DNA of 64,000 bases from Planctomycetota bacterium. GTDB taxonomy: Bacteria; Planctomycetota; MHYJ01; WSZJ01. Below the pieces are notes generated by a model. It was not told where the DNA came from, did no database searches, and saw nothing but the letters and a program-made list of their open reading frames with translations. A program made the translations under genes and the position numbers. The stretch covers positions 256,001 through 320,000 of the forward strand of contig JBBTCT010000022.1 in the NCBI GenBank assembly GCA_038060895.1. Direction: 5' to 3'. This document shows positions 875 through 21,102 of this stretch, one piece after another; positions within the stretch are counted from its first letter, which is position 1, and each line of letters begins with the position of its first letter.

Positions 875-1315
875 GTGAGCGGAAACGGCTGTTCCTTCTG
901 GGCCCAGAACGTCTCCCCGGAGACGAGCTGGCCGATTTCCTCCGAAGCGCCGGCGGGGATGGACGGAATGTCCTGGTCGAGCGAGTGCGTCTGGGACGCG
1001 ATGTCCTTCCCGCAGGGAGTCCTGCAGGTCTCCGCGCCCGTCGAGATCCGGAACCCAAACAACACCGTGATCTTCTCCATCGTGATCATCGGCCAGAGCA
1101 GCGGGTCTCCTCAGCTCGCCATCGTATTCTCCGGCGCCAATTGTCCGGAGGGTCCCTACACCACGCTGAGCGGGCCGACCAACATCACGACCTTGGGCCT
1201 GCAGTTCCTAGGCGCCGTGACCGGAATCAGGTTCCCCTACGTCCGGGCAGAAGTCATGTCGTCGAACGGGAGTGCGGTGGCGGGGAGCGGGTGCTTTTGT
1301 GTCTCGGAAGCCTAA
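875..1315 (+). CDS. Small beta-rich hypothetical protein, possibly virion-associated
   Basis: 146-aa ORF with GAGGAG RBS right after the Gly-rich gene; beta-sandwich-like pattern ending in FPYVRAEV. Confidence 0.5.
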   Translation: MSGNGCSFWAQNVSPETSWPISSEAPAGMDGMSWSSECVWDAMSFPQGVLQVSAPVEIRNPNNTVIFSIVIIGQSSGSPQLAIVFSGANCPEGPYTTLSGPTNITTLGLQFLGAVTGIRFPYVRAEVMSSNGSAVAGSGCFCVSEA

Positions 1316-1473
1316 AGCCAGCGTTCGCTCGACAAACCAACCGTCCAAAGCGCCATCGGTGTAGCACATAACGAGAAGAGGTTTCGCGCGACTGTCTCTC
1401 ATCAAAGTCAAGTCAGAGCTCTCCAGCGCCTGACGGGTCTTCGAGTCGATTTTCCCTAGAGAAGGAGGTACCG

Positions 1474-1956
1474 ATGCCAGATCCAGAGATTGTGTCAATT
1501 GACGAAATCTTGCGTGCTAATGAGCTAAGGGATCCGCTGACCGGGGTCAGAACCGGCGGCACCGTGCTACACCCTGGCACTGGCGTGAAACTTCGGAAAG
1601 ATCGGCCTTCAGGATCCATTGGAATCAACTTGGACACAGGTCAATTGGAGATGCATGACTGGGGGCCGACCGTTGCTGGGCCCAGTACTGATTTCTCAAA
1701 GTTACCTGAACGAATCCGACTCTTTGGGGGAGAAACTGGCGACGGGCCCAGGGTGGGTCGTGACCCAAAGGAGTCTGAGGACCGTGGCGTGGAGATGCTG
1801 CTTCCGGAAGGCGTGAGAAAATTCGTCGCAGGAGATGCGCTGAAGGCAGGTATTGTCTCCATTTCCTTCGAGTTCGGAGGACCTTGGGGCCTTACCGTCA
1901 CGTTTGGAAGGCCGCCTGAGCCGGCTGGGGTCAGACGGAAGGACCTGGAGAAGTGA
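1474..1956 (+). CDS. Hypothetical protein (lower-GC accessory region)
   Basis: Strong AAGGAGGT RBS before ATG; 160 aa; no motif recognised. Confidence 0.55.
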   Translation: MPDPEIVSIDEILRANELRDPLTGVRTGGTVLHPGTGVKLRKDRPSGSIGINLDTGQLEMHDWGPTVAGPSTDFSKLPERIRLFGGETGDGPRVGRDPKESEDRGVEMLLPEGVRKFVAGDALKAGIVSISFEFGGPWGLTVTFGRPPEPAGVRRKDLEK

Positions 1957-2060
1957 CGCAATGCGAAACACGATCCATTTCTCGAAGTCGAGGACTGTCT
2001 GGGATGGGATGACTTCCCAGGAGCTAACCGCGCCTCCGTCGAAATCTCAGGAGCACGTCA

Positions 2061-3209
2061 ATGCGAACAGAAGCTTCTAGCGAACTGACTCATTCGTCAA
2101 GGTGGTGTCATCCAGTTACATTTGCACTTGCCTTGTTTCTTGGATGCGCCGCGGGTCAGGGCACCAACGAATCGAAGCCAGAAGAACCCAGGATTCACAA
2201 TTCGGTGGAATTGAGGGACTCGCAAGGGAGGATCCGGCTCTCGATCTGTCTGGATCAAGATGAGTGTCCTCAAATCATGCTATTTGATCCCGCCGGACAC
2301 CCTCGCTCGCGAATTGGACTAAGTTCGGAATTCGAACCCGTAATTCGTATGACGGGTTCGAACGGCGAGGATGCGGTTTCGCTTGGTTTGCGCGAGGATT
2401 CCCCCCAACTCCGGCTGGAGTGTGGCGAGGGACGAAGTGGTATTCGGATCCAGGCTGAAGCAACGCGAGGACCGGAGTTGACGTTGTCGGATGGCGATGG
2501 TTTGGAGCGCGCCCGACTGGCAATTGATCGTGGCGCCCCACAACTTTCGATGTTGGACCCTGGACTCAAGCCTCGCCTGTACCTTGGAACCGAGGTCTCG
2601 ACACCGGATAATTACGGACTCCGCGTCACCTCAGACGACGGCCTTTCCCGCGCGGAGGTTGGCACGACAAAAAACTCGCCGGCGTTCATCCTCGTTTCTG
2701 GAGGCGCTGGCGAATGGTCAGCGCTTGCAATGAGCCGTGGCGGGCACCCGCTGCTAAGCTTTGTCGATTCGACCGACATCGAACGAATTCGAGTCAGCTT
2801 GACGCCTCAACAGGAGTCCGAAGTAGCGCTTTGTAGCGCCGAAGGTCAGATTTCCGTTCTGGCAAGATGTCCGAAGTCGGGTTTCGGGTTGGTCAACTTG
2901 TCCGATGGCGATTCACCGACAGCCGTGTTTCTGGGGAAAGGTTCGTCCGGTGATGTCTTGGCCGGGATCGTTGATGCGGCGGGGTGTAGACGAGCGAGCT
3001 TGTCGCTAACCCCGGAGGACCGAGCTTACGCCTCCGTACAGGATTCGACCGCCTCCTCAGCCTTTCTGACGAACGATGGCAAAGGACTTTGCAAACTCGA
3101 GCTGAATCGAAAGGGAAAGACCAGACTGCTCGCGGGTTTTGACAAGACTGATACAGCATCCTTCATGTCGCTTGATTCGGAGGAAATCGAAACTTGGCGA
3201 TCAAAGTAG
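2061..3209 (+). CDS. Putative lipoprotein with repeated L-x-D-x-x-G-x-x-R beta-hairpin units
   Basis: Hydrophobic N-terminal stretch ending LFLGC; repeats LRDSQGRIR, LFDPAGHPR, LSDGDGLER, IVDAAGCRR. Confidence 0.6.
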   Translation: MRTEASSELTHSSRWCHPVTFALALFLGCAAGQGTNESKPEEPRIHNSVELRDSQGRIRLSICLDQDECPQIMLFDPAGHPRSRIGLSSEFEPVIRMTGSNGEDAVSLGLREDSPQLRLECGEGRSGIRIQAEATRGPELTLSDGDGLERARLAIDRGAPQLSMLDPGLKPRLYLGTEVSTPDNYGLRVTSDDGLSRAEVGTTKNSPAFILVSGGAGEWSALAMSRGGHPLLSFVDSTDIERIRVSLTPQQESEVALCSAEGQISVLARCPKSGFGLVNLSDGDSPTAVFLGKGSSGDVLAGIVDAAGCRRASLSLTPEDRAYASVQDSTASSAFLTNDGKGLCKLELNRKGKTRLLAGFDKTDTASFMSLDSEEIETWRSK

Positions 3210-14541: not shown

Positions 14542-15261
14542 ATGCGCGTTTGCCTCGTTCTCGCCTTCGTCGGCATCGCCGCTTCCCTCGCTGCCGCCCA
14601 GGACTCGAAGCCCGACGTCTCCGAAAACGCCTGGCTCGACTACGACGTCGCTTCGCTCAAGAACGGCGAGTGGGTGAAACTGAAACTCGACCGCGACGGG
14701 GAGAAGCCTCTGGAGTACCGGCTGTCGTGCGTGGGGCTGGAAGCGGAGGTGGTCTGGATCGAGGAGGACCGGACGACGGTGGAGTCGTTCCCGGGGACGG
14801 TGATCCTGTGCTCGGTGGGGTTGAAGGACCGGAAGGTGAAGCGCGCGTTCTGGGGGAAGCCGGGTGAGAAGGGCCGGGAGCTGAACCTGACGCGGCGGAT
14901 TTTGCCGGATCCGGGCAACGACGCGGCGAAGGGGACTGCGGAAGTGACCGCGGGCAAGGTGACGATCAAGGGAAAGGAGCACGTCACCGAGAAAATCGAA
15001 ATCAAGGTGGAGATCGAGGGGTTCGGCGCGCCGATCAAGACGAAGCAGGTGATCGTCCTTGCAGCCGAGATCCCATTCCCGCTGGCGATGGACGAGAAGG
15101 GCAACTGCCGCGCGAGCATTTCGGAGGGGAAGATCGAATGGAAGGGGAAGCCGACGTGGAAGGGCGGGGTGGTGACGCTTCAATTTGAGGGCGGAACGAA
15201 GTCGACGCTGTCGCTTGTGGACTGGGGGGCGGACGCGAAGGCGACGTTGTTCAAGCCCTAG
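14542..15261 (+). CDS. Secreted beta-rich hypothetical protein
   Basis: GGAG RBS, signal peptide MRVCLVLAFVGIAASLAAA, host-like codon usage. Confidence 0.75.
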   Translation: MRVCLVLAFVGIAASLAAAQDSKPDVSENAWLDYDVASLKNGEWVKLKLDRDGEKPLEYRLSCVGLEAEVVWIEEDRTTVESFPGTVILCSVGLKDRKVKRAFWGKPGEKGRELNLTRRILPDPGNDAAKGTAEVTAGKVTIKGKEHVTEKIEIKVEIEGFGAPIKTKQVIVLAAEIPFPLAMDEKGNCRASISEGKIEWKGKPTWKGGVVTLQFEGGTKSTLSLVDWGADAKATLFKP

Positions 15262-16117: not shown

Positions 16118-16579
16118 TTACTCTTTACCGCCGCAGCACTTCTTGTACTTCTTGCCGCTCCCGCAAGGGCACGGATCGTTGCGGCCGAGAGGCGCGCCCG
16201 CATTCTTGAAAGGCGTTCCCTCGGGTTTCGCCTGCTTTTCGAACGCCGCGGTGAGCGCGCCGGCGTAGGTGGCGAGCTGGCGGCCGCCGTAGAGGCGACC
16301 CTCGGATTCCAGGAATTCGAGGAAGGCGCCGACGAGGTGGGGGACGGAGGCGCGCGCTTCGGGTGGAAGGGCAAGCCGGGCGAGGCCGGTGAGGAGGCCG
16401 TTTCTGACGGAGAGTTCGTCGAGATCGCCGGGAGAAACGGAGGCGCACGCCGTTTCCATGAAGGCCATGAGGAGCGGGGCGGCGTCCAGATCGGGGCGTG
16501 CGCGGAAGGGGCGGAAGGGAGTGGACTCGAGGAAGTCAGCGATCCAGGCTTCGACGCTGTCGCGTTCGAACGTTTCCAT
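16118..16579 (-). CDS. SEC-C motif protein
   Basis: C-terminal [18 protein letters not shown]. Confidence 0.9.
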
Positions 16580-16873
16580 GGGCAAAGCATCGTACGCGCG
16601 GGGCTGCTGTCGCGCGAGTGGCAGGGGGAATAGTCGCCGGAACGCTCAGCCGAGATCGTATAAAATAAGTACTCTGCGCTGCTTAATGATATGCGTGGCT
16701 GGAGTCTGACGCACAGCGAATTTCAACGGGATTATGCACTTGACAAACTTAAAATCCATGAACGAAACTCGTACAGGCATCATGGTTTGCGTCGATTATG
16801 GCCCCGCGATTAAACGAATAAGAAAATCGCCAGAGTCCCGTTTCAGGACGCGATTTTGGCCCGCGACGAGGAT

Positions 16874-17002
16874 TCAGGACTTACGGCGAGGTTTCCCGGC
16901 CTTCTTAGCCCGCTTCAGGGGGGGTGTAGCGAGGGCCTTCCGGATCATGGCGTCGAAGTCCACGCGGGTCACTTCTCGGTGGCTCTCTGGCTTGGGTTTC
17001 AT
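16874..17002 (-). CDS. 42-aa basic peptide inside the IS
   Basis: AAGGAG RBS; MKPKPESHREVTRVDFDAMIRKALATPPLKRAKKAGKPRRKS; too short for the ORF track. Confidence 0.6.
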   Translation of the reverse strand: MKPKPESHREVTRVDFDAMIRKALATPPLKRAKKAGKPRRKS

Positions 17003-17049
17003 CTATCTATCTCCTTGGGGGTTATCAGGCTGATTCCCCTAGAAAGTAT

Positions 17050-17078
17050 TTGACAGCGTCTGCGGCGCAGCTTAGGAT
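17050..17078 (+). promoter_or_regulatory. Sigma70-type promoter for the wHTH-tRNA-tRNA unit
   Basis: TTGACA-17 bp-TAGGAT; ATG lies 7 nt after the -10, implying a leaderless mRNA. Confidence 0.75.
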
Positions 17079-17085
17079 TTCCCAG

Positions 17086-17475
17086 ATGCGAAGGAACAAC
17101 AAGATCGTGAGCCTTGGAGAGGAAATCGCGGCGAAGCGCCGGGAGCTGGCGGCGCTTGAGGCCGAACTTGACATCGAAGTCAGGCGGTATAGCGGTGGTC
17201 ATGCGAAGGCTCCACAAGCGGTGGTGACACCGCCTAGACCTGCGGACCCTGAAGAGGTCCTTCTGAGTGATGCCATCATCGCTGGCAAGGTGGTGCCTCT
17301 CTTGGACAGGGAGCCGGATCGGGTGTTCACCGTGGATGATATCACAAGATTGACCGGAGTGCCGCGCCACCTTCTGGTGATGTCTATCGGGCGCATGGTG
17401 CGCTGGCACAAGGTCCACAAAGTGGAAGCTGGCAAGTACAAGGCATCCACGGTTAAGAAAGCGATGGAGGGATAA
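17086..17475 (+). CDS. Passenger protein: N-terminal coiled coil plus putative C-terminal winged helix
   Basis: EEIAAKRRELAALEAEL coil, Pro-rich linker, then VFTVDDITRLTGVPRHLLVMSIGRMVRWHKVHKVEAGKY (helix-turn-helix plus wing pattern). Confidence 0.65.
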   Translation: MRRNNKIVSLGEEIAAKRRELAALEAELDIEVRRYSGGHAKAPQAVVTPPRPADPEEVLLSDAIIAGKVVPLLDREPDRVFTVDDITRLTGVPRHLLVMSIGRMVRWHKVHKVEAGKYKASTVKKAMEG

Positions 17476-17504
17476 AGAAAAACCCTCGGTCGTTGGCCGA
17501 GGGT
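17474..17504 (-). terminator. Minus-strand intrinsic terminator between the wHTH gene and the tRNAs
   Basis: ACCCTCGGTC-GTT-GGCCGAGGGT hairpin preceded by AAAGAAAAA, so the U-tract exists only on the minus strand. Confidence 0.65.
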
Positions 17505-17515
17505 GTACGTCGGTT

Positions 17516-17607
17516 GGAGAGGTGTCCGAGTGGCTTATGGTGCTGGTTTCCAAAACCAGTGAACGGTGGTGACACACCGTCCGAGGGTTCGACTCCCTCC
17601 CTCTCCG
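17516..17607 (+). tRNA. tRNA with Ser-type body and CCA (Trp) anticodon
   Basis: GGAGAGG/CCTCTCC acceptor, G73, G15:C48, CTGGT-TTCCAAA-ACCAG anticodon arm, long variable arm ACGGTG/CACCGT, GAGGG-TTCGACT-CCCTC T arm; 3' CCA not encoded. Confidence 0.92.
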
Positions 17608-17625
17608 TTTTGCTGTTCTGAGGCT

Positions 17626-17720
17626 GGCCGGGTGGCGGAACTGGTTTACGCGCCCGACTTGGAATCGGGTGGTTGTCTCTTGACGGGGGCACCATGCGGG
17701 TTCGAATCCCGTCCCGGTCA
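17626..17720 (+). tRNA. tRNA with Leu-type body and UGG (Pro) anticodon
   Basis: GGCCGGG/CCCGGTC acceptor, A73, D arm GCG-GAACTGGTTTA-CGC with A15:U48, CCCGA-CTTGGAA-TCGGG anticodon arm, ~26-nt variable arm, GCGGG-TTCGAAT-CCCGT T arm; 3' CCA not encoded. Confidence 0.92.
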
Positions 17721-17780
17721 GTCTCATTTTTGAAAGATCGAAGCGCCTTTGCGAAGTGCTTGAGGCTGGCGCGTGTCAAA

Positions 17781-17809
17781 AGAATACAACAAGACTGGGT
17801 GCGTGTCAA
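17781..17809 (-). promoter_or_regulatory. Sigma70-type promoter antisense to the tRNA pair
   Basis: Minus strand TTGACA (17809-17804), 17 bp, TATTCT (17786-17781), pointing into the tRNA genes. Confidence 0.7.
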
Positions 17810-17841
17810 CTTGCGAAATTGACGCACCGCGCCAACTCTGA

Positions 17842-18795
17842 CTAGCGCTTCACATCCCGCTTTGGCGCTTCCAGAGTGAGGCGTTTTCCTTCGGTGCGCT
17901 GGATCGCGTCGAGCATCTTCGCCCCGTCTGACTTCTTCCGGTTGTTGAACGTCCAGAGGTAGGAATCGAGGTACTTCGGAAGGTAGTCATGCCCAACGCC
18001 GTGGAAGATGCCCACGATGGAAGTCTTGAAGTTGGCGAAGAGGCCCTCAACGCCGTTCGTCGTGACGTCCCCACGGGCGTACTCTTCGATGGAGTGGTTG
18101 ACGGTTTCATGCTTCACCATCATCCGCCCTGGCGTGACGTACAGCTTGGATTCGTCTGAGTGAAGCACCGTCCGCTTGGGATCAACGTTCTTCATTACGA
18201 AGCGGCGGATGTCCCGCGCGTTGGCCTTGGGCGCTGGCTTGACGACGGCACGCGCGGACCCTCCACGCTGAACCAGCGCCAGCACGGTTGACTTCTTCAC
18301 GGCCTTGCCACGGCGCGATCCGCGCCCCTTGTGGCCGAAGTAGGTTTCGTCCGCTTCGATGATCCCGGCGAGTGGTGACTTGTCGGAGTTCTGGAGAGCG
18401 TGGCGCACCCGATGGCAGAGAAACCACGCGGTGCGATAACTGCCGAGTTCAAGGTGCCGCTGGATTGCCAGCGCCGAGATTCCTGTCTTGCTGGACGAAA
18501 TGAGGTAGAAGGCCAGCAGCCACTTGTTGAGCGGGATGTGGCTGTCCTCGAAGATCGTGCCAACGGTGCAAGTGAACTGCTTCCGGCACGCCACGCAGAA
18601 CAGCAGCCCCTTGCGAATCTTCTTCTCCGCGTCTGGCTTGAGCCGGGCGACCTTCTCGCGTTCGGTGCAGCCACAGTGCGGGCAAACGGGGCCAGAGGGC
18701 CAGCGCACCGCTTCGATGTAGTTACGCGCGGCGTCCTCGTCTGGGAAGAGAGAGAAGATGTTCGTCAGGCTCACGGCATCGGGCGTCGGGATCAT
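17842..18795 (-). CDS. IS1595-family (ISXO2-like) DDE transposase
   Basis: Zn ribbon CPHCG..CVAC, GTIFEDSHIPL, IEADETYFG, LHSDE, VNHS, TNGVEG..FK, YLDSY. Confidence 0.95.
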   Translation of the reverse strand: MIPTPDAVSLTNIFSLFPDEDAARNYIEAVRWPSGPVCPHCGCTEREKVARLKPDAEKKIRKGLLFCVACRKQFTCTVGTIFEDSHIPLNKWLLAFYLISSSKTGISALAIQRHLELGSYRTAWFLCHRVRHALQNSDKSPLAGIIEADETYFGHKGRGSRRGKAVKKSTVLALVQRGGSARAVVKPAPKANARDIRRFVMKNVDPKRTVLHSDESKLYVTPGRMMVKHETVNHSIEEYARGDVTTNGVEGLFANFKTSIVGIFHGVGHDYLPKYLDSYLWTFNNRKKSDGAKMLDAIQRTEGKRLTLEAPKRDVKR

Positions 18796-18820
18796 GGGCG
18801 TCTCCTTTGAGTACGCCTAA

Positions 18821-18849
18821 AAGATACTAGATCATGCTTGTTTTGTCAA
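18821..18849 (-). promoter_or_regulatory. Transposase promoter with -35 inside the TIR
   Basis: Minus strand TTGACA-17 bp-TATCTT, then AAGGAG RBS and ATG at 18795. Confidence 0.75.
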
Positions 18850-18923
18850 GTGCATAATCCCGATTTCAAGCTTAACATTATGATATTAAATAAGTTATGA
18901 CACATTGTCTGCAACGGTTCATT

Positions 18924-18939
18924 CGGCACGTGCGTTGCA
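18924..18939 (+). promoter_or_regulatory. Putative sigma54 -24/-12 promoter
   Basis: CGGCACGTGCGTTGCA (GG-N10-GC) preceded by an AT-rich IHF-like tract, upstream of the ORF at 19022. Confidence 0.55.
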
Positions 18940-19021
18940 ATTCAATCTTGACGCGACCTGATCAACGAACGGTTGCGGCCTTCACTTCCCAAACAACAAC
19001 TCACCGATCGGAGAACGACCC

Positions 19022-19561
19022 ATGAGCAACACATTGGACACAACCATCCGGGTTCAGTGGTCCCCGGCCCCCGGCTCCCCCGAAGCCCTTTCTTCCAACC
19101 GCCGTCTCTCGAAGCTCGCCGCTGCGGCGCTTCACTGCGCCTGGCTGTCCTACATCGCGGCGCTCTTCCTTCCTGCCGCTGTCTACACACCCGGCTACCT
19201 GTGCCTGCTCGGGTCGGCCGTTTCGGTGGTGGTTCTCTGCCTGGGCTCGGTCTCCGCGCTCGTTCCCGCGCTTCTGTTCATCCCGAACCTGGCGATGCTC
19301 CTGAGCCCGATGGTCCTGGCGCGGTCCGTGCGTCGCGGCCGCATGATGCAGGTCCTGAGCGGGCTCAGCGTGGCCGGCGCCATCCTGACCGTTTCGTGCG
19401 GCGCGCTGATCTGCTCCCAGGGGCTCGACACCGGCGGCTGCGGCGGCACGGGCGGACGGAACTCCGATCCGGAGATCGGGTTCTTCATGTGGGTCGTGTC
19501 GGCGGTCTTCCTCGCGGCCGGCACGGTCCTCGCCCGCCGGTCGGAAGGCGCCGCGAAGTAA
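19022..19561 (+). CDS. Hypothetical multi-pass membrane protein
   Basis: GGAG RBS; 4-5 hydrophobic segments. Confidence 0.7.
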   Translation: MSNTLDTTIRVQWSPAPGSPEALSSNRRLSKLAAAALHCAWLSYIAALFLPAAVYTPGYLCLLGSAVSVVVLCLGSVSALVPALLFIPNLAMLLSPMVLARSVRRGRMMQVLSGLSVAGAILTVSCGALICSQGLDTGGCGGTGGRNSDPEIGFFMWVVSAVFLAAGTVLARRSEGAAK

Positions 19562-19653
19562 GTCCGGTCTCCTCTCTGCCGAACGGGCCGCGCGATCCCC
19601 ACGGATCCGCGGCCCGTCGCGTTTCCGGCATTCTTCGGGGACAATGCCCCGGA

Positions 19654-20111: not shown

Positions 20112-20462
20112 ATGACGACAAGTTCCCTGCCGACGCCGACGGGCGAATCCGTTCCCATGACCAGCTTCCCGGCCTCTGCGCTCAAGAACTCCGCTGCGGA
20201 TGTCCTGGAGATGGTCCTGACCTCCGGCGCCGTTGTCATCACCCGACACGGCAAGGAGAAGGCCGTGATCCTGTCCGTCGAAGCCTACCGGCGACTCGTG
20301 GCTTCCCGCCGCGACGACCTGGACGTTCTACGCGCAAAATTCGGCGGGCTGCTAGCCAGAATGCAGACTCCCGCTGCGCGAAAGGGCGCACGGGCCGCCT
20401 TCGACGCTTCGCCGGATGAAATGGGCAAAGCAGCCGTAAAGGCGGCGCGCCGCCGTGGCTGA
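20112..20462 (+). CDS. Phd/YefM-family antitoxin
   Basis: ASALKNSAADVLE..AVVITRHGKEKAVILSVEAY. Confidence 0.85.
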   Translation: MTTSSLPTPTGESVPMTSFPASALKNSAADVLEMVLTSGAVVITRHGKEKAVILSVEAYRRLVASRRDDLDVLRAKFGGLLARMQTPAARKGARAAFDASPDEMGKAAVKAARRRG

Positions 20463-21102
20463 CCGCCGCGCCGTCATCACCGTGCTCGCCGGCACGAATG
20501 GCGCCGGCAAGAGCAGCATTGCAGGAGCCACGATTCGTTCGCGCCAGGCGGACTACTACAACCCTGACGAAGCGGCGCGCGCTCACAAGGAAGCGCATCC
20601 GGAGGCGACTGCCGAAGAAGCGAACGCCGCTGCGTGGGAATTCGGCCGCCGCATGCTCGAAGAGGCCGCTCGTGAGCGGAAGAACTTCGCCTTTGAAACG
20701 ACACTGGGCGGCAACACGATCATGTTTCTTCTTGAGAATGCAGCGAATTCCGGTTTGGACGTGCGGATCTGGTACACCGGACTTGCTTCAGTCGAGTTGC
20801 ACCTCAAACGCGTCCGGCAACGGGTCCGCCTGGGAGGTCACGACATTCCCGAGGAAATGATCCGGCGCCGCTATGAGAACGGGCCCCGGAACCTGATCCG
20901 CCTCATGCCGAAGCTCGCCTCGCTGCGCGTCTACGACAACAGTGCCGCAGGGGATCCCGCCGCGGGAGTGGCTCCGAAACCAGTTCTTGTTCTGCAGATG
21001 GAAAAGGGCCGAATTGCCGGGCCGAAGGATCTGTCCCGGACTTCCGAATGGGCGAAATCGATCGTCGCGCGGGCCATGGAACTTCACTCGGCGCCCAGGT
21101 AG
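20455..21102 (+). CDS. Zeta-toxin-like P-loop protein
   Basis: [39 protein letters not shown]; overlaps the antitoxin gene. Confidence 0.85.

Follow-up and report, generated by a model that had tools for sequence, protein, structure and literature searches.

A leucine-type tRNA with a proline anticodon carried by an IS1595-family insertion sequence: a candidate mobile missense suppressor

This report concerns a 95-nt tRNA gene at positions 17626–17720 (plus strand) of a 64,000-nt stretch of DNA, hereafter the window, that corresponds to positions 256001–320000 of contig C22 of a metagenome-assembled genome (MAG) from the Planctomycetota (G000; 86.5% complete). The gene couples a leucine-type body to the UGG anticodon of proline and lies, next to a serine-type tRNA with a tryptophan anticodon, inside an insertion sequence (IS) of the IS1595 family. 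ARAGORN calls it at 17625–17721 with a tgg anticodon, the Rfam model RF00005 matches it over its full length (model positions 1–71) with 55.5 bits (E 6.4e-11; gathering score 29 bits), and its minimum free energy (MFE) fold, computed without constraints, is a cloverleaf of −42.1 kcal/mol. Both the Rfam alignment and the MFE fold describe a class II tRNA with a 7/5 acceptor/T-stem geometry; an extra U:A pair proposed by ARAGORN would give 8/5. The acceptor stem, GGCCGGG/CCCGGTC, provides G1:C72 and G2:U71 and is followed by the discriminator A73 at 17720; U8, A14, A15 (17640) and G18G19 (17643–17644) are present, the D arm consists of a 3-bp stem and an 11-nt loop, and U48 is found at 17695. 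A 5-bp anticodon stem (CCCGA/UCGGG) closes a 7-nt loop, C32 U33 U34 G35 G36 A37 A38 (CUUGGAA), at 17658–17664, the variable region of about 25 nt folds as a bulged hairpin of about 9 bp, and the T arm (GCGGG-UUCGAAU-CCCGU) has a canonical T loop. Three features of tRNA-Pro, G35, G36 and A73, all occur in the gene; C1:G72, G15:C48, G37 and the class I shape of tRNA-Pro do not. The traits to which a preliminary description of this DNA had drawn attention (A73, A15/U48, a Leu-type D arm, a long variable arm, G1:C72 and the CUUGGAA loop) are all borne out by the sequence, ARAGORN and Rfam, and the mismatch that it saw between a Leu-type body and a UGG anticodon is real. Together with the family alignment presented below, these data confirm 17626–17720 as a real, intact tRNA gene.

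This tRNA is almost certainly the cargo of the surrounding IS, an element of 2,136 bp at 16727–18862 that encloses an open reading frame (ORF) of 141 amino acids, the two tRNA genes and a transposase gene. The element is bounded by perfect terminal inverted repeats of 21 nt (16727–16747, plus strand, and 18842–18862, minus strand; 21 of 21 positions in our repeat script) and flanked by two copies of the 7-bp target-site duplication ATTTCAA (16720–16726 and 18863–18869). Its IS1595-family transposase of 317 amino acids (17842–18795, minus strand) is convergent with the tRNAs, the ORF being situated 121 nt downstream of the Leu-type tRNA on the opposite strand, and displays the Pfam domains DDE_Tnp_IS1595 (2.3e-29) and, at the N-terminus, Zn_ribbon_IS1595 (5e-12); an alignment of six transposases of this kind (A1) shows no variation at residues D149, E150, D214 and E250. 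A promoter-like TTGACA-17-TATCTT at 18849–18821 is directed at the transposase gene, and the left inverted repeat contains an inward-pointing TTGACA.

The element is absent from the syntenic site in seven out of seven genomes of the same genus: in G002, 113 nt stand in place of window positions 16599–19645, and in G001, G003 and G004 the flanks at 15261 and 19654 directly adjoin. A DNA run from a separate study (X3) contains element-bearing contigs at 99–100% identity as well as one contig in which 16719 is followed directly by 18863, so that 2,143 nt are missing and seven letters fit both sides. This junction coincides with the boundaries and the duplication that had been predicted beforehand; the shorter side of the joint has only 23 letters, and we take the empty site as good, not perfect, evidence of mobility. 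We also considered whether an IS end might lie inside the tRNA, given an 11/12 inverted match between 17658–17669, which comprises the anticodon loop and the 3′ strand of its stem, and 18859–18870 (I16), and rejected this idea. The right-hand partner of the match is simply the right IS end plus target duplication, such matches are common in the region, and we judge this one to be due to chance; it is of note in that the element inserts into similar AT-rich sites.

The Leu-type tRNA replaces no host tRNA. The same genome encodes five ordinary tRNA-Leu genes (UAA, CAA, CAG, GAG and UAG), ordinary tRNA-Pro genes (UGG, CGG and GGG), which have C1:G72 and G37, as well as a tRNA-Trp of the ordinary kind. 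The D-arm stretch of 17626–17720 differs from that of the host tRNA-Leu(CAA) at 2 of 19 positions and is unlike those of the host tRNA-Ser, tRNA-Tyr and tRNA-Pro; over the entire gene, identity to each of the host tRNA-Leu genes amounts to 58–61 of 95 positions. Host tRNA-Leu variable regions measure about 13–15 nt, whereas the ~25 nt found here resemble host tRNA-Ser. The gene had been described as one change away from tRNA-Leu(UAG), which holds for the anticodon triplet and fails for the gene: since the host tRNA-Leu(UAG) matches it at 58/95 positions only and differs in its stems, in having G37 and in the length of its variable region (13 nt), 17626–17720 is no one-step derivative of that gene. 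Further long tRNAs called by ARAGORN elsewhere in the genome (C5 Gln, C33 Arg, C46 Pro-agg, C32 Trp and C22:398993 Ser) have no canonical T loops and are probable false positives. We note separately an array of 35 tRNA calls packed in 4.2 kb, 57 kb to the left of the window (C22:195134–199316), which includes short ‘Leu’ tRNAs of 73–74 nt, one call with a 4-base anticodon, and odd-loop Pro and Trp copies. The genome also yields two selenocysteine tRNA (tRNA-SeC) calls, one with a regular 8-bp acceptor and T loop (C4:13533–13625) and one that looks doubtful (C1:472898–472990).

The pairing of such a tRNA with such a transposase recurs well beyond this genome. A pattern defined on the tRNA side (Leu-type D loop, CUUGGAA loop and long variable arm) and applied to one genome per species retrieved 13 Leu-like CUUGGAA loci from 185,579 species genomes, distributed over Terriglobia/Acidobacteriota, Gemmatimonadota, Krumholzibacteriia, Dehalococcoidales, Peribacteria and proteobacteria (names as in the sequence records). 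At seven of these 13 loci a related transposase (31–42% identical) adjoins the tRNA, two others have different DDE transposases of the IS240/IS1 type, and one (L033) ends near a contig edge. The same pattern was met at two loci in viral contigs, one of them with the transposase. In the reverse direction, alignment A1 retrieved 574 relatives of the transposase, of which the best 80 loci were examined. ARAGORN found tRNAs in 16 of these 80 loci, and a covariance model built from the tRNA family (R1; threshold 70 bits) found 11 Leu-like tRNAs scoring at least 70 bits, two of which ARAGORN had missed. Seven of the 11 carry UGG (L037, L042, L047, L050, L078, L087 and L091); the others read CGG (L059), GGG (L054), UUA (L065) and UAA (L103), the last being the only cognate one, a host gene outside the IS end. 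Counting two class I tRNAs with UGG (L035 and L043) alongside nine Leu-like ones, an NGG tRNA on a non-Pro body is found at 11/80 loci. Chance would be expected to place well under one tRNA-Leu in the 438 kb that these loci represent, and one with a Leu anticodon. The tRNA-bearing elements form no single tight clade in a tree of the transposases but are spread over a large part of the family, and in genomes with several IS1595 homologues the tRNA is found only beside the copy closest to A1.

Inverted repeats of one consensus enclose both transposase and tRNA in 11 elements (the window element, that of C9/L171, and L021, L023, L031, L032, L035, L054, L059, L065 and L091). A single inverted-repeat end was found for L027, L042, L043, L078 and L087, and no inverted repeats were found by script and regular expressions for L025, L026, L047 and L050. 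Target-site duplications of the IS1595 family are 8 bp long. The duplication at the window element has 7 bp; direct repeats of 8 bp flank eight related elements (L021, L031, L032, L054, L059, L065, L091 and the C9 element), two of these cases resting on a 1-nt shift of the element ends made by eye. The C9 element is a second IS1595-family element of the source genome (L171, C9:97500–102500; positions 1095–3162 of the locus, 2,068 bp, 48%-diverged). It shows the 8-bp duplication GTGAGAAA and carries a Leu-like tRNA(UGG) of class I size with G1:C72, A73, A37 and the loop CUUGGAC, together with an ORF without a Pfam match. Cargo of the same kind is not limited to NGG anticodons: Leu-like bodies with a UGA (Ser) anticodon (L027, 1965–2048, minus strand) and with a UUA anticodon, which reads the stop codon UAA (L065, 3595–3678, minus strand), lie inside or beside the same kind of IS. 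In G004, a member of the same genus, two Leu-like tRNAs stand in tandem behind a 152-aa ORF at another locus (C96, L252/L253; L252 339–426 and 435–531), UUA (of the ochre-suppressor type) first and then UGG; the UGG tRNA is 70% identical to 17626–17720, has G37 and resembles it in its long variable arm. Across many phyla, which by record names include Planctomycetota, Acidobacteriota, Verrucomicrobiota, Gemmatimonadota, Chloroflexota, Pseudomonadota and others, one transposase lineage is accompanied by tRNAs that combine a Leu-type body with a Pro anticodon. As a separate observation, the tRNA-linked transposases of L023 (4315–5327, minus strand) and L032 (1253–2214, plus strand) are each made of two overlapping ORFs with a −1 frame change, both in long-read assemblies; a sequencing indel, decay or programmed frameshifting could account for the split.

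Evidence that the tRNA itself is under selection comes from an alignment of 22 Leu-like tRNAs (A2; 20 NGG, one UUA and one UGA), 13 of whose rows were found by the pattern that fixes the loop and part of the D loop, so that the nine transposase-side rows are the fair sample as far as the loop is concerned. Stem cells of A2 are paired in 97.7% of cases versus 40–49% with slid partners, 17 of 20 stem pairs vary on both sides, all five anticodon-stem pairs included, and none of 500 shuffles reached the observed pairing values, a count that is no probability because the sequences are related. We consider the comparison with slid partners and the count of compensatory pairs to be decisive for selection on the cloverleaf. 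Outside the stems, T8, G9, A14, A15 and G19 are invariant, and G1, G18, the D-loop A after U20, U33, G35, A37, U48 and A73 are conserved in at least 90% of the rows; G1:C72 occurs in 20/22, and most members have a short variable arm and C2:G71. Among the transposase-side NGG tRNAs, position 34 varies (U, C or G), G35 and G36 are kept, and position 37 is A in seven and G in four of 11 (L037, L047, L078 and L087); A37 is no family trait. None of the homologues carries the UAG anticodon that would have undermined the initial proposal, the relatives having UGG (most of them), CGG or GGG. Every anticodon observed in the Leu-like cargo equals a Leu anticodon altered at position 35 (UAG to UGG, CAG to CGG, GAG to GGG, UAA to UGA or UUA), and the CCA of the neighbouring Ser-type tRNA is likewise the Ser anticodon CGA altered at position 35.

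These conserved positions can be set against the identity elements of the E. coli enzymes, as given in those parts of PMC9976931 on which we draw throughout. Leucyl-tRNA synthetase (LeuRS) of E. coli ignores the anticodon and the variable arm and depends on A73, A15:U48, G18G19, the D-loop ‘A20a’ and D/T-loop contacts, and prolyl-tRNA synthetase (ProRS) needs G72, G35, G36, A73, G15:C48 and G37 (PMC9976931). The family keeps the LeuRS determinants A73, A15:U48, G18G19 and the D-loop A after U20, and it is devoid of the ProRS determinants C1:G72, G15:C48 and, mostly, G37.

The second tRNA of the window element, a class II tRNA of the Ser type whose loop UUCCAAA contains a CCA (Trp) anticodon and whose discriminator is G73, is located at 17516–17607 (plus strand), 18 nt upstream of the Leu-type tRNA, and was identified by ARAGORN (cca anticodon, 17515–17608), by RF00005 (48.8 bits) and from its sequence. 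At its two ends, over the first 9 nt and the last 27 nt, it is identical to the host tRNA-Ser(GGA), and 73/92 positions are shared overall. A pattern for Ser-body CCA tRNAs found 28 loci in other genomes, four of which (L144, L149, L157 and L166) have an IS1595-type transposase, 27–30% identical, within about 1 kb. We also observed tRNA arrays (L142, L143, L162 and L163) that include class II-shaped CCA tRNAs with G73 and an A1:U72-type acceptor. Such an acceptor is a feature of tRNA-Trp, and these genes may encode Trp tRNAs in which the variable arm is long. The loops UUCCAAA and CUUGGAA of the two window tRNAs are complementary, which had raised the idea of kissing loops; because other two-tRNA elements pair different anticodons (UGG with UGA, CGA, GCA or GUU; CGG with CGU; UUA with UGC), we attribute the complementarity to chance.

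Directly upstream of the tRNAs, the passenger ORF at 17050–17475 (plus strand; 141 aa, or perhaps 129 aa from an internal methionine) encodes a protein that resembles a coiled coil in its N-terminal part and a winged helix in its C-terminal part. In Pfam it matches MarR_2 alone, weakly and below the cut-off (E 0.074), and residues 67–141 come near helix-turn-helix (HTH) folds of the MarR/IclR type in Atlas structure rows (TM 0.47–0.49), a similarity that serves as a lead only. Small ORFs occupy the equivalent place, on the same strand and before the tRNAs, in L065, L054, L032, L023, L059 and L253. No homology was found among them (BLASTP gave nothing below E 0.38) and two of the relatives’ ORFs have HARE-HTH matches in Pfam that are likewise sub-threshold, on which grounds the idea of a conserved passenger protein was rejected. 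The sequence that separates the tRNA operon from the convergent transposase gene contains, at 17798–17828, a hairpin of about 10 bp with a 2-nt bulge; its 5′ arm repeats a motif at 17768–17779 (direct repeat D15), and it is a putative terminator or binding site. Pfam scans of the IS and its flanks found no aminoacyl-tRNA synthetase domain.

The reading that we favour, and to which we assign a probability of roughly one half, is that the Leu-type tRNA is a mobile missense suppressor carried by an IS, charged by LeuRS and reading the proline codons CCA and CCG as leucine. The element is a ‘transporter IS’, that is, an insertion sequence with passenger genes. Its winged-helix-like protein, Ser-type tRNA(CCA) and Leu-type tRNA(UGG) may form an operon driven by a promoter within or close to the left inverted repeat, this operon converging on a transposase gene presumably driven from the right inverted repeat. 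Charging with leucine is proposed because LeuRS ignores the anticodon and the family keeps A73 and the geometry of the D loop and Levitt pair. The Leu-type tRNA would be expected to insert leucine at CCA/CCG at a low level, in competition with the host tRNA-Pro, and the Ser-type tRNA(CCA) might likewise read UGG, replacing tryptophan with serine.

A number of observations weigh against this proposal. A proteome-wide change of proline to leucine should be harmful and holds no evident benefit for the element. The conserved N34-G35-G36 is what selection for ProRS recognition would also be expected to produce, and the discriminators are common to both candidate enzymes in each case (A73 to Leu and Pro, G73 to Ser and Trp). 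The window copy itself departs from the family at two positions: it has a U (alignment column 21) in place of the D-loop A after U20 found in at least 90% of the members, an A that is essential for E. coli LeuRS (PMC9976931), and it has G2:U71 for the family’s usual C2:G71. Nor is the association with the transposase complete, as three of the 13 pattern loci (L024, L028 and L030) have no transposase nearby, the G004 homologue has no IS1595 transposase or end motif within 3 kb, and the second cargo tRNAs of L059 (Thr, CGU) and L091 (Asn, GUU) look cognate by sequence. In the RNA library X7, the transposase gene is covered by two contigs and the tRNAs by none, which is no proof of silence because such libraries capture tRNAs poorly. 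Finally, no column of the transposase pairs proline in 18 tRNA-linked sequences with a conserved leucine in 71 other transposases. Self-decoding, in which the transposase would need its Pro codons read as Leu, was rejected for the transposase on this ground; by eye, the coiled-coil part of the 141-aa ORF contains no proline.

The most serious alternative, unlikely as we consider it, is that the anticodon governs charging and that the host ProRS loads the tRNA with proline, alone or beside LeuRS. Were proline the sole amino acid, the gene would be an extra, oddly shaped, mobile tRNA-Pro(UGG); with dual identity, decoding would be ambiguous. The host enzyme lends weight to this explanation at the expense of the one that we favour, being a family I ProRS of the archaeal/eukaryote-like kind (TIGR00408, 558 bits against a cut-off of 437; 92–96% identical to ProRS of Planctomycetia MAGs), while an E. 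coli-type ProRS was not found in the host (best score 74.9 bits versus 306.7). Anticodon recognition is kept in all ProRS types, and acceptor recognition is weak in the eukaryote/archaeal-like type (PMC9976931); the host ProRS being of the anticodon-reliant type, Pro or dual charging is therefore possible. Variation at position 34 with retention of G35 and G36, the presence of A73, which Leu and Pro share, and the parallel combination in the neighbouring tRNA of a G73 common to Ser and Trp with a CCA anticodon all point the same way. On the other side stand the retention of G1:C72 and A15:U48 by the family, also in proteobacterial hosts (L023, L031 and L091), and the C1:G72 and G37 of the host’s own tRNA-Pro genes. 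Moreover, charging by ProRS would not prevent LeuRS from charging the tRNA too, and anticodon-based charging leaves the Leu-like cargo with UGA or UUA (L027, L065 and G004) unexplained.

We regard as quite improbable a role for the tRNAs outside decoding, whether as RNase P/Z sites or terminators, as antisense to transposase read-through or as decoys for anticodon-loop factors. The architecture of the elements is suggestive in this respect, the 3′ end of the tRNA lying 0–126 nt from the stop codon of a convergent transposase in most of them and a terminator-like minus-strand hairpin being found just beyond the tRNAs of the window (17504–17482). The class I UGG copies of L035 and L043 have non-canonical T loops, and irregular tRNAs that are charged yet unused in translation have been described (Mukai et al., PMC5389517). 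However, a processing signal needs no conserved anticodon, covarying anticodon stem, U33, G18G19, Levitt pair or A73, and the orientation relative to the transposase varies, being tandem in L032, L047 and L091 and divergent in L031 and L087.

Two further explanations strike us as very improbable. The preliminary description had suggested that A37, in place of the m1G37 of tRNA-Pro, may favour +1 frameshifting, which would make the tRNA a +1 frameshift suppressor at CCC-N or CCN sites. The window copy does have A37, and methylation of G37 in E. coli tRNA-Pro suppresses frameshift errors (PMC9976931), but the suggestion finds no support, given the normal 7-nt anticodon loop and the G37 present in 4/11 transposase-side NGG tRNAs; G37 also occurs in the G004 homologue, and the split transposases of L023 and L032 need a −1 change, not +1. 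Frameshift suppressors of the sufA6/sufB2 kind have an enlarged anticodon loop of 8 nt, unlike the tRNA studied here. Charging by seryl-tRNA synthetase (SerRS) is the other; it would be favoured by a variable arm of about 9 bp, in a region that exceeds the length of host tRNA-Leu and resembles host tRNA-Ser, and by the replacement of C2:G71 with G2:U71 in the window copy, C2:G71 of E. coli tRNA-Leu being an antideterminant against SerRS (PMC9976931, Table 3), and is opposed by A73 instead of G73, by the Leu-type D arm and by the short variable arms and C2:G71 of most family members. Least credible of all is a decaying or one-off mutant copy of the host tRNA-Leu(UAG), a pseudogene without a selected role: UGG is one change from UAG, and the G2:U71 pair, unusual D-loop U and over-long variable arm of the window copy might be taken for decay, but the gene matches the presumed parent at too few positions (58/95), relatives linked to transposases 31–48% identical keep NGG and a covarying cloverleaf, and the second, 48%-diverged IS of the same genome also bears a UGG tRNA.

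Returning to the mobile missense suppressor, a broader version of this reading, which we advance only tentatively, sees the IS1595 lineage as a vehicle of position-35 variants in general (Pro to Leu, Trp to Ser, Ser to Leu and ochre to Leu), that is, of mobile ‘code-ambiguity cassettes’. Promoters borne by the ends of the element would fire and give rise to regulated statistical mistranslation or suppression in whatever host the element had reached; the payoff to the element might be the rescue of second-codon-position mutations, stress or mutator states, or addiction. If true, this would provide a natural route for the horizontal spread of codon reassignment.

Two features of the surroundings of the IS may be recorded here. 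A Phd/YefM antitoxin gene followed by a gene for a Zeta-toxin-family kinase (1.7e-13 and 7.8e-11, respectively) lies at 20151–21102, 1.3 kb to the right of the IS, and belongs to the backbone common to congeners. A sequence of about 55 nt at 16129–16189, with many copies of 80–92% identity across the genome and in congeners, may be a small repeat or an element like a miniature inverted-repeat transposable element (MITE).

Departures from the codon table are rare among natural tRNAs, and most known cases are isolated oddities; here the mismatch is no accident and extends beyond one genome. Were the tRNA charged with leucine, insertion sequences could carry missense suppression between species, which would bear on the origins of codon reassignment, on the tolerance of mistranslation and on what transposons contain besides transposases. 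The family may also offer genetic-code engineering natural scaffolds of the LeuRS type that tolerate foreign anticodons, and it calls for caution in annotation, where ‘tRNA-Pro’ and ‘tRNA-Trp’ calls made from the anticodon only can be wrong.

Among known systems, the closest are the allo-tRNAs and ‘polycistrons of irregular tRNAs’ described from acidobacterial and soil metagenomes (Mukai et al. 2017, PMC5389517; what follows relates to the portions of that paper available to us). Like the tRNAs studied here, allo-tRNAs occur naturally in bacteria and join a long variable arm to an anticodon at odds with the body, some of them lying in tandem; they are suspected to be missense or nonsense suppressors and to be linked with toxin-antitoxin systems or transposable elements, and some inserted serine at leucine codons in E. 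coli (PMC5389517). Unlike the present family, with its 7/5 geometry and Leu-type body, they are of Ser or Ala identity and divide the 12 bp of the acceptor branch into 8/4 or 9/3, and the portions of that paper considered, the supplementary figures being outside this scope, name no IS1595 element, inverted repeats or Leu-body/Pro-anticodon class (PMC5389517). The tRNA-ProX/ProRSx pair of Streptomyces and relatives, in the sections of PMC11415595 that we used, similarly comprises a genome-encoded tRNA of hybrid identity that would mistranslate sense codons; there, Pro identity is combined with a non-Pro anticodon and a dedicated synthetase, whereas here the arrangement is mirrored and the element has no synthetase. 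Nematode nev-tRNAs resemble the window tRNA in being class II tRNAs with a variable arm, charged with leucine and provided with Gly or Ile anticodons, and differ from it in being eukaryotic nuclear genes with other anticodons that lie off transposons, according to the part of PMC4300185 consulted.

In E. coli, nonsense suppressors that insert leucine or serine owe their activity to an altered anticodon, on a tRNA whose synthetase does not read it. These classical suppressor tRNAs are laboratory mutants of chromosomal genes, in contrast to the natural and mobile lineage found here in multiple phyla. The literature that we surveyed, judged by titles, the openings of abstracts and selected passages, with supplements and subscription journals outside its scope, yielded no tRNA genes carried by an insertion sequence and no bacterial tRNA with a Leu body and a Pro anticodon. 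The element itself conforms to the transporter IS of the IS1595 family, a concept set out in PMC3129680, which cites Siguier et al. 2009, in its DDE transposase with N-terminal zinc ribbon, terminal inverted repeats, short duplications and passengers, with the difference that the passengers described in the relevant part of PMC3129680 are protein-coding and those found here are tRNA genes. Hybrid-identity tRNAs and passenger-carrying IS are both known; neither tRNA passengers nor their conserved pairing with one anticodon class were encountered in the literature retrieved.

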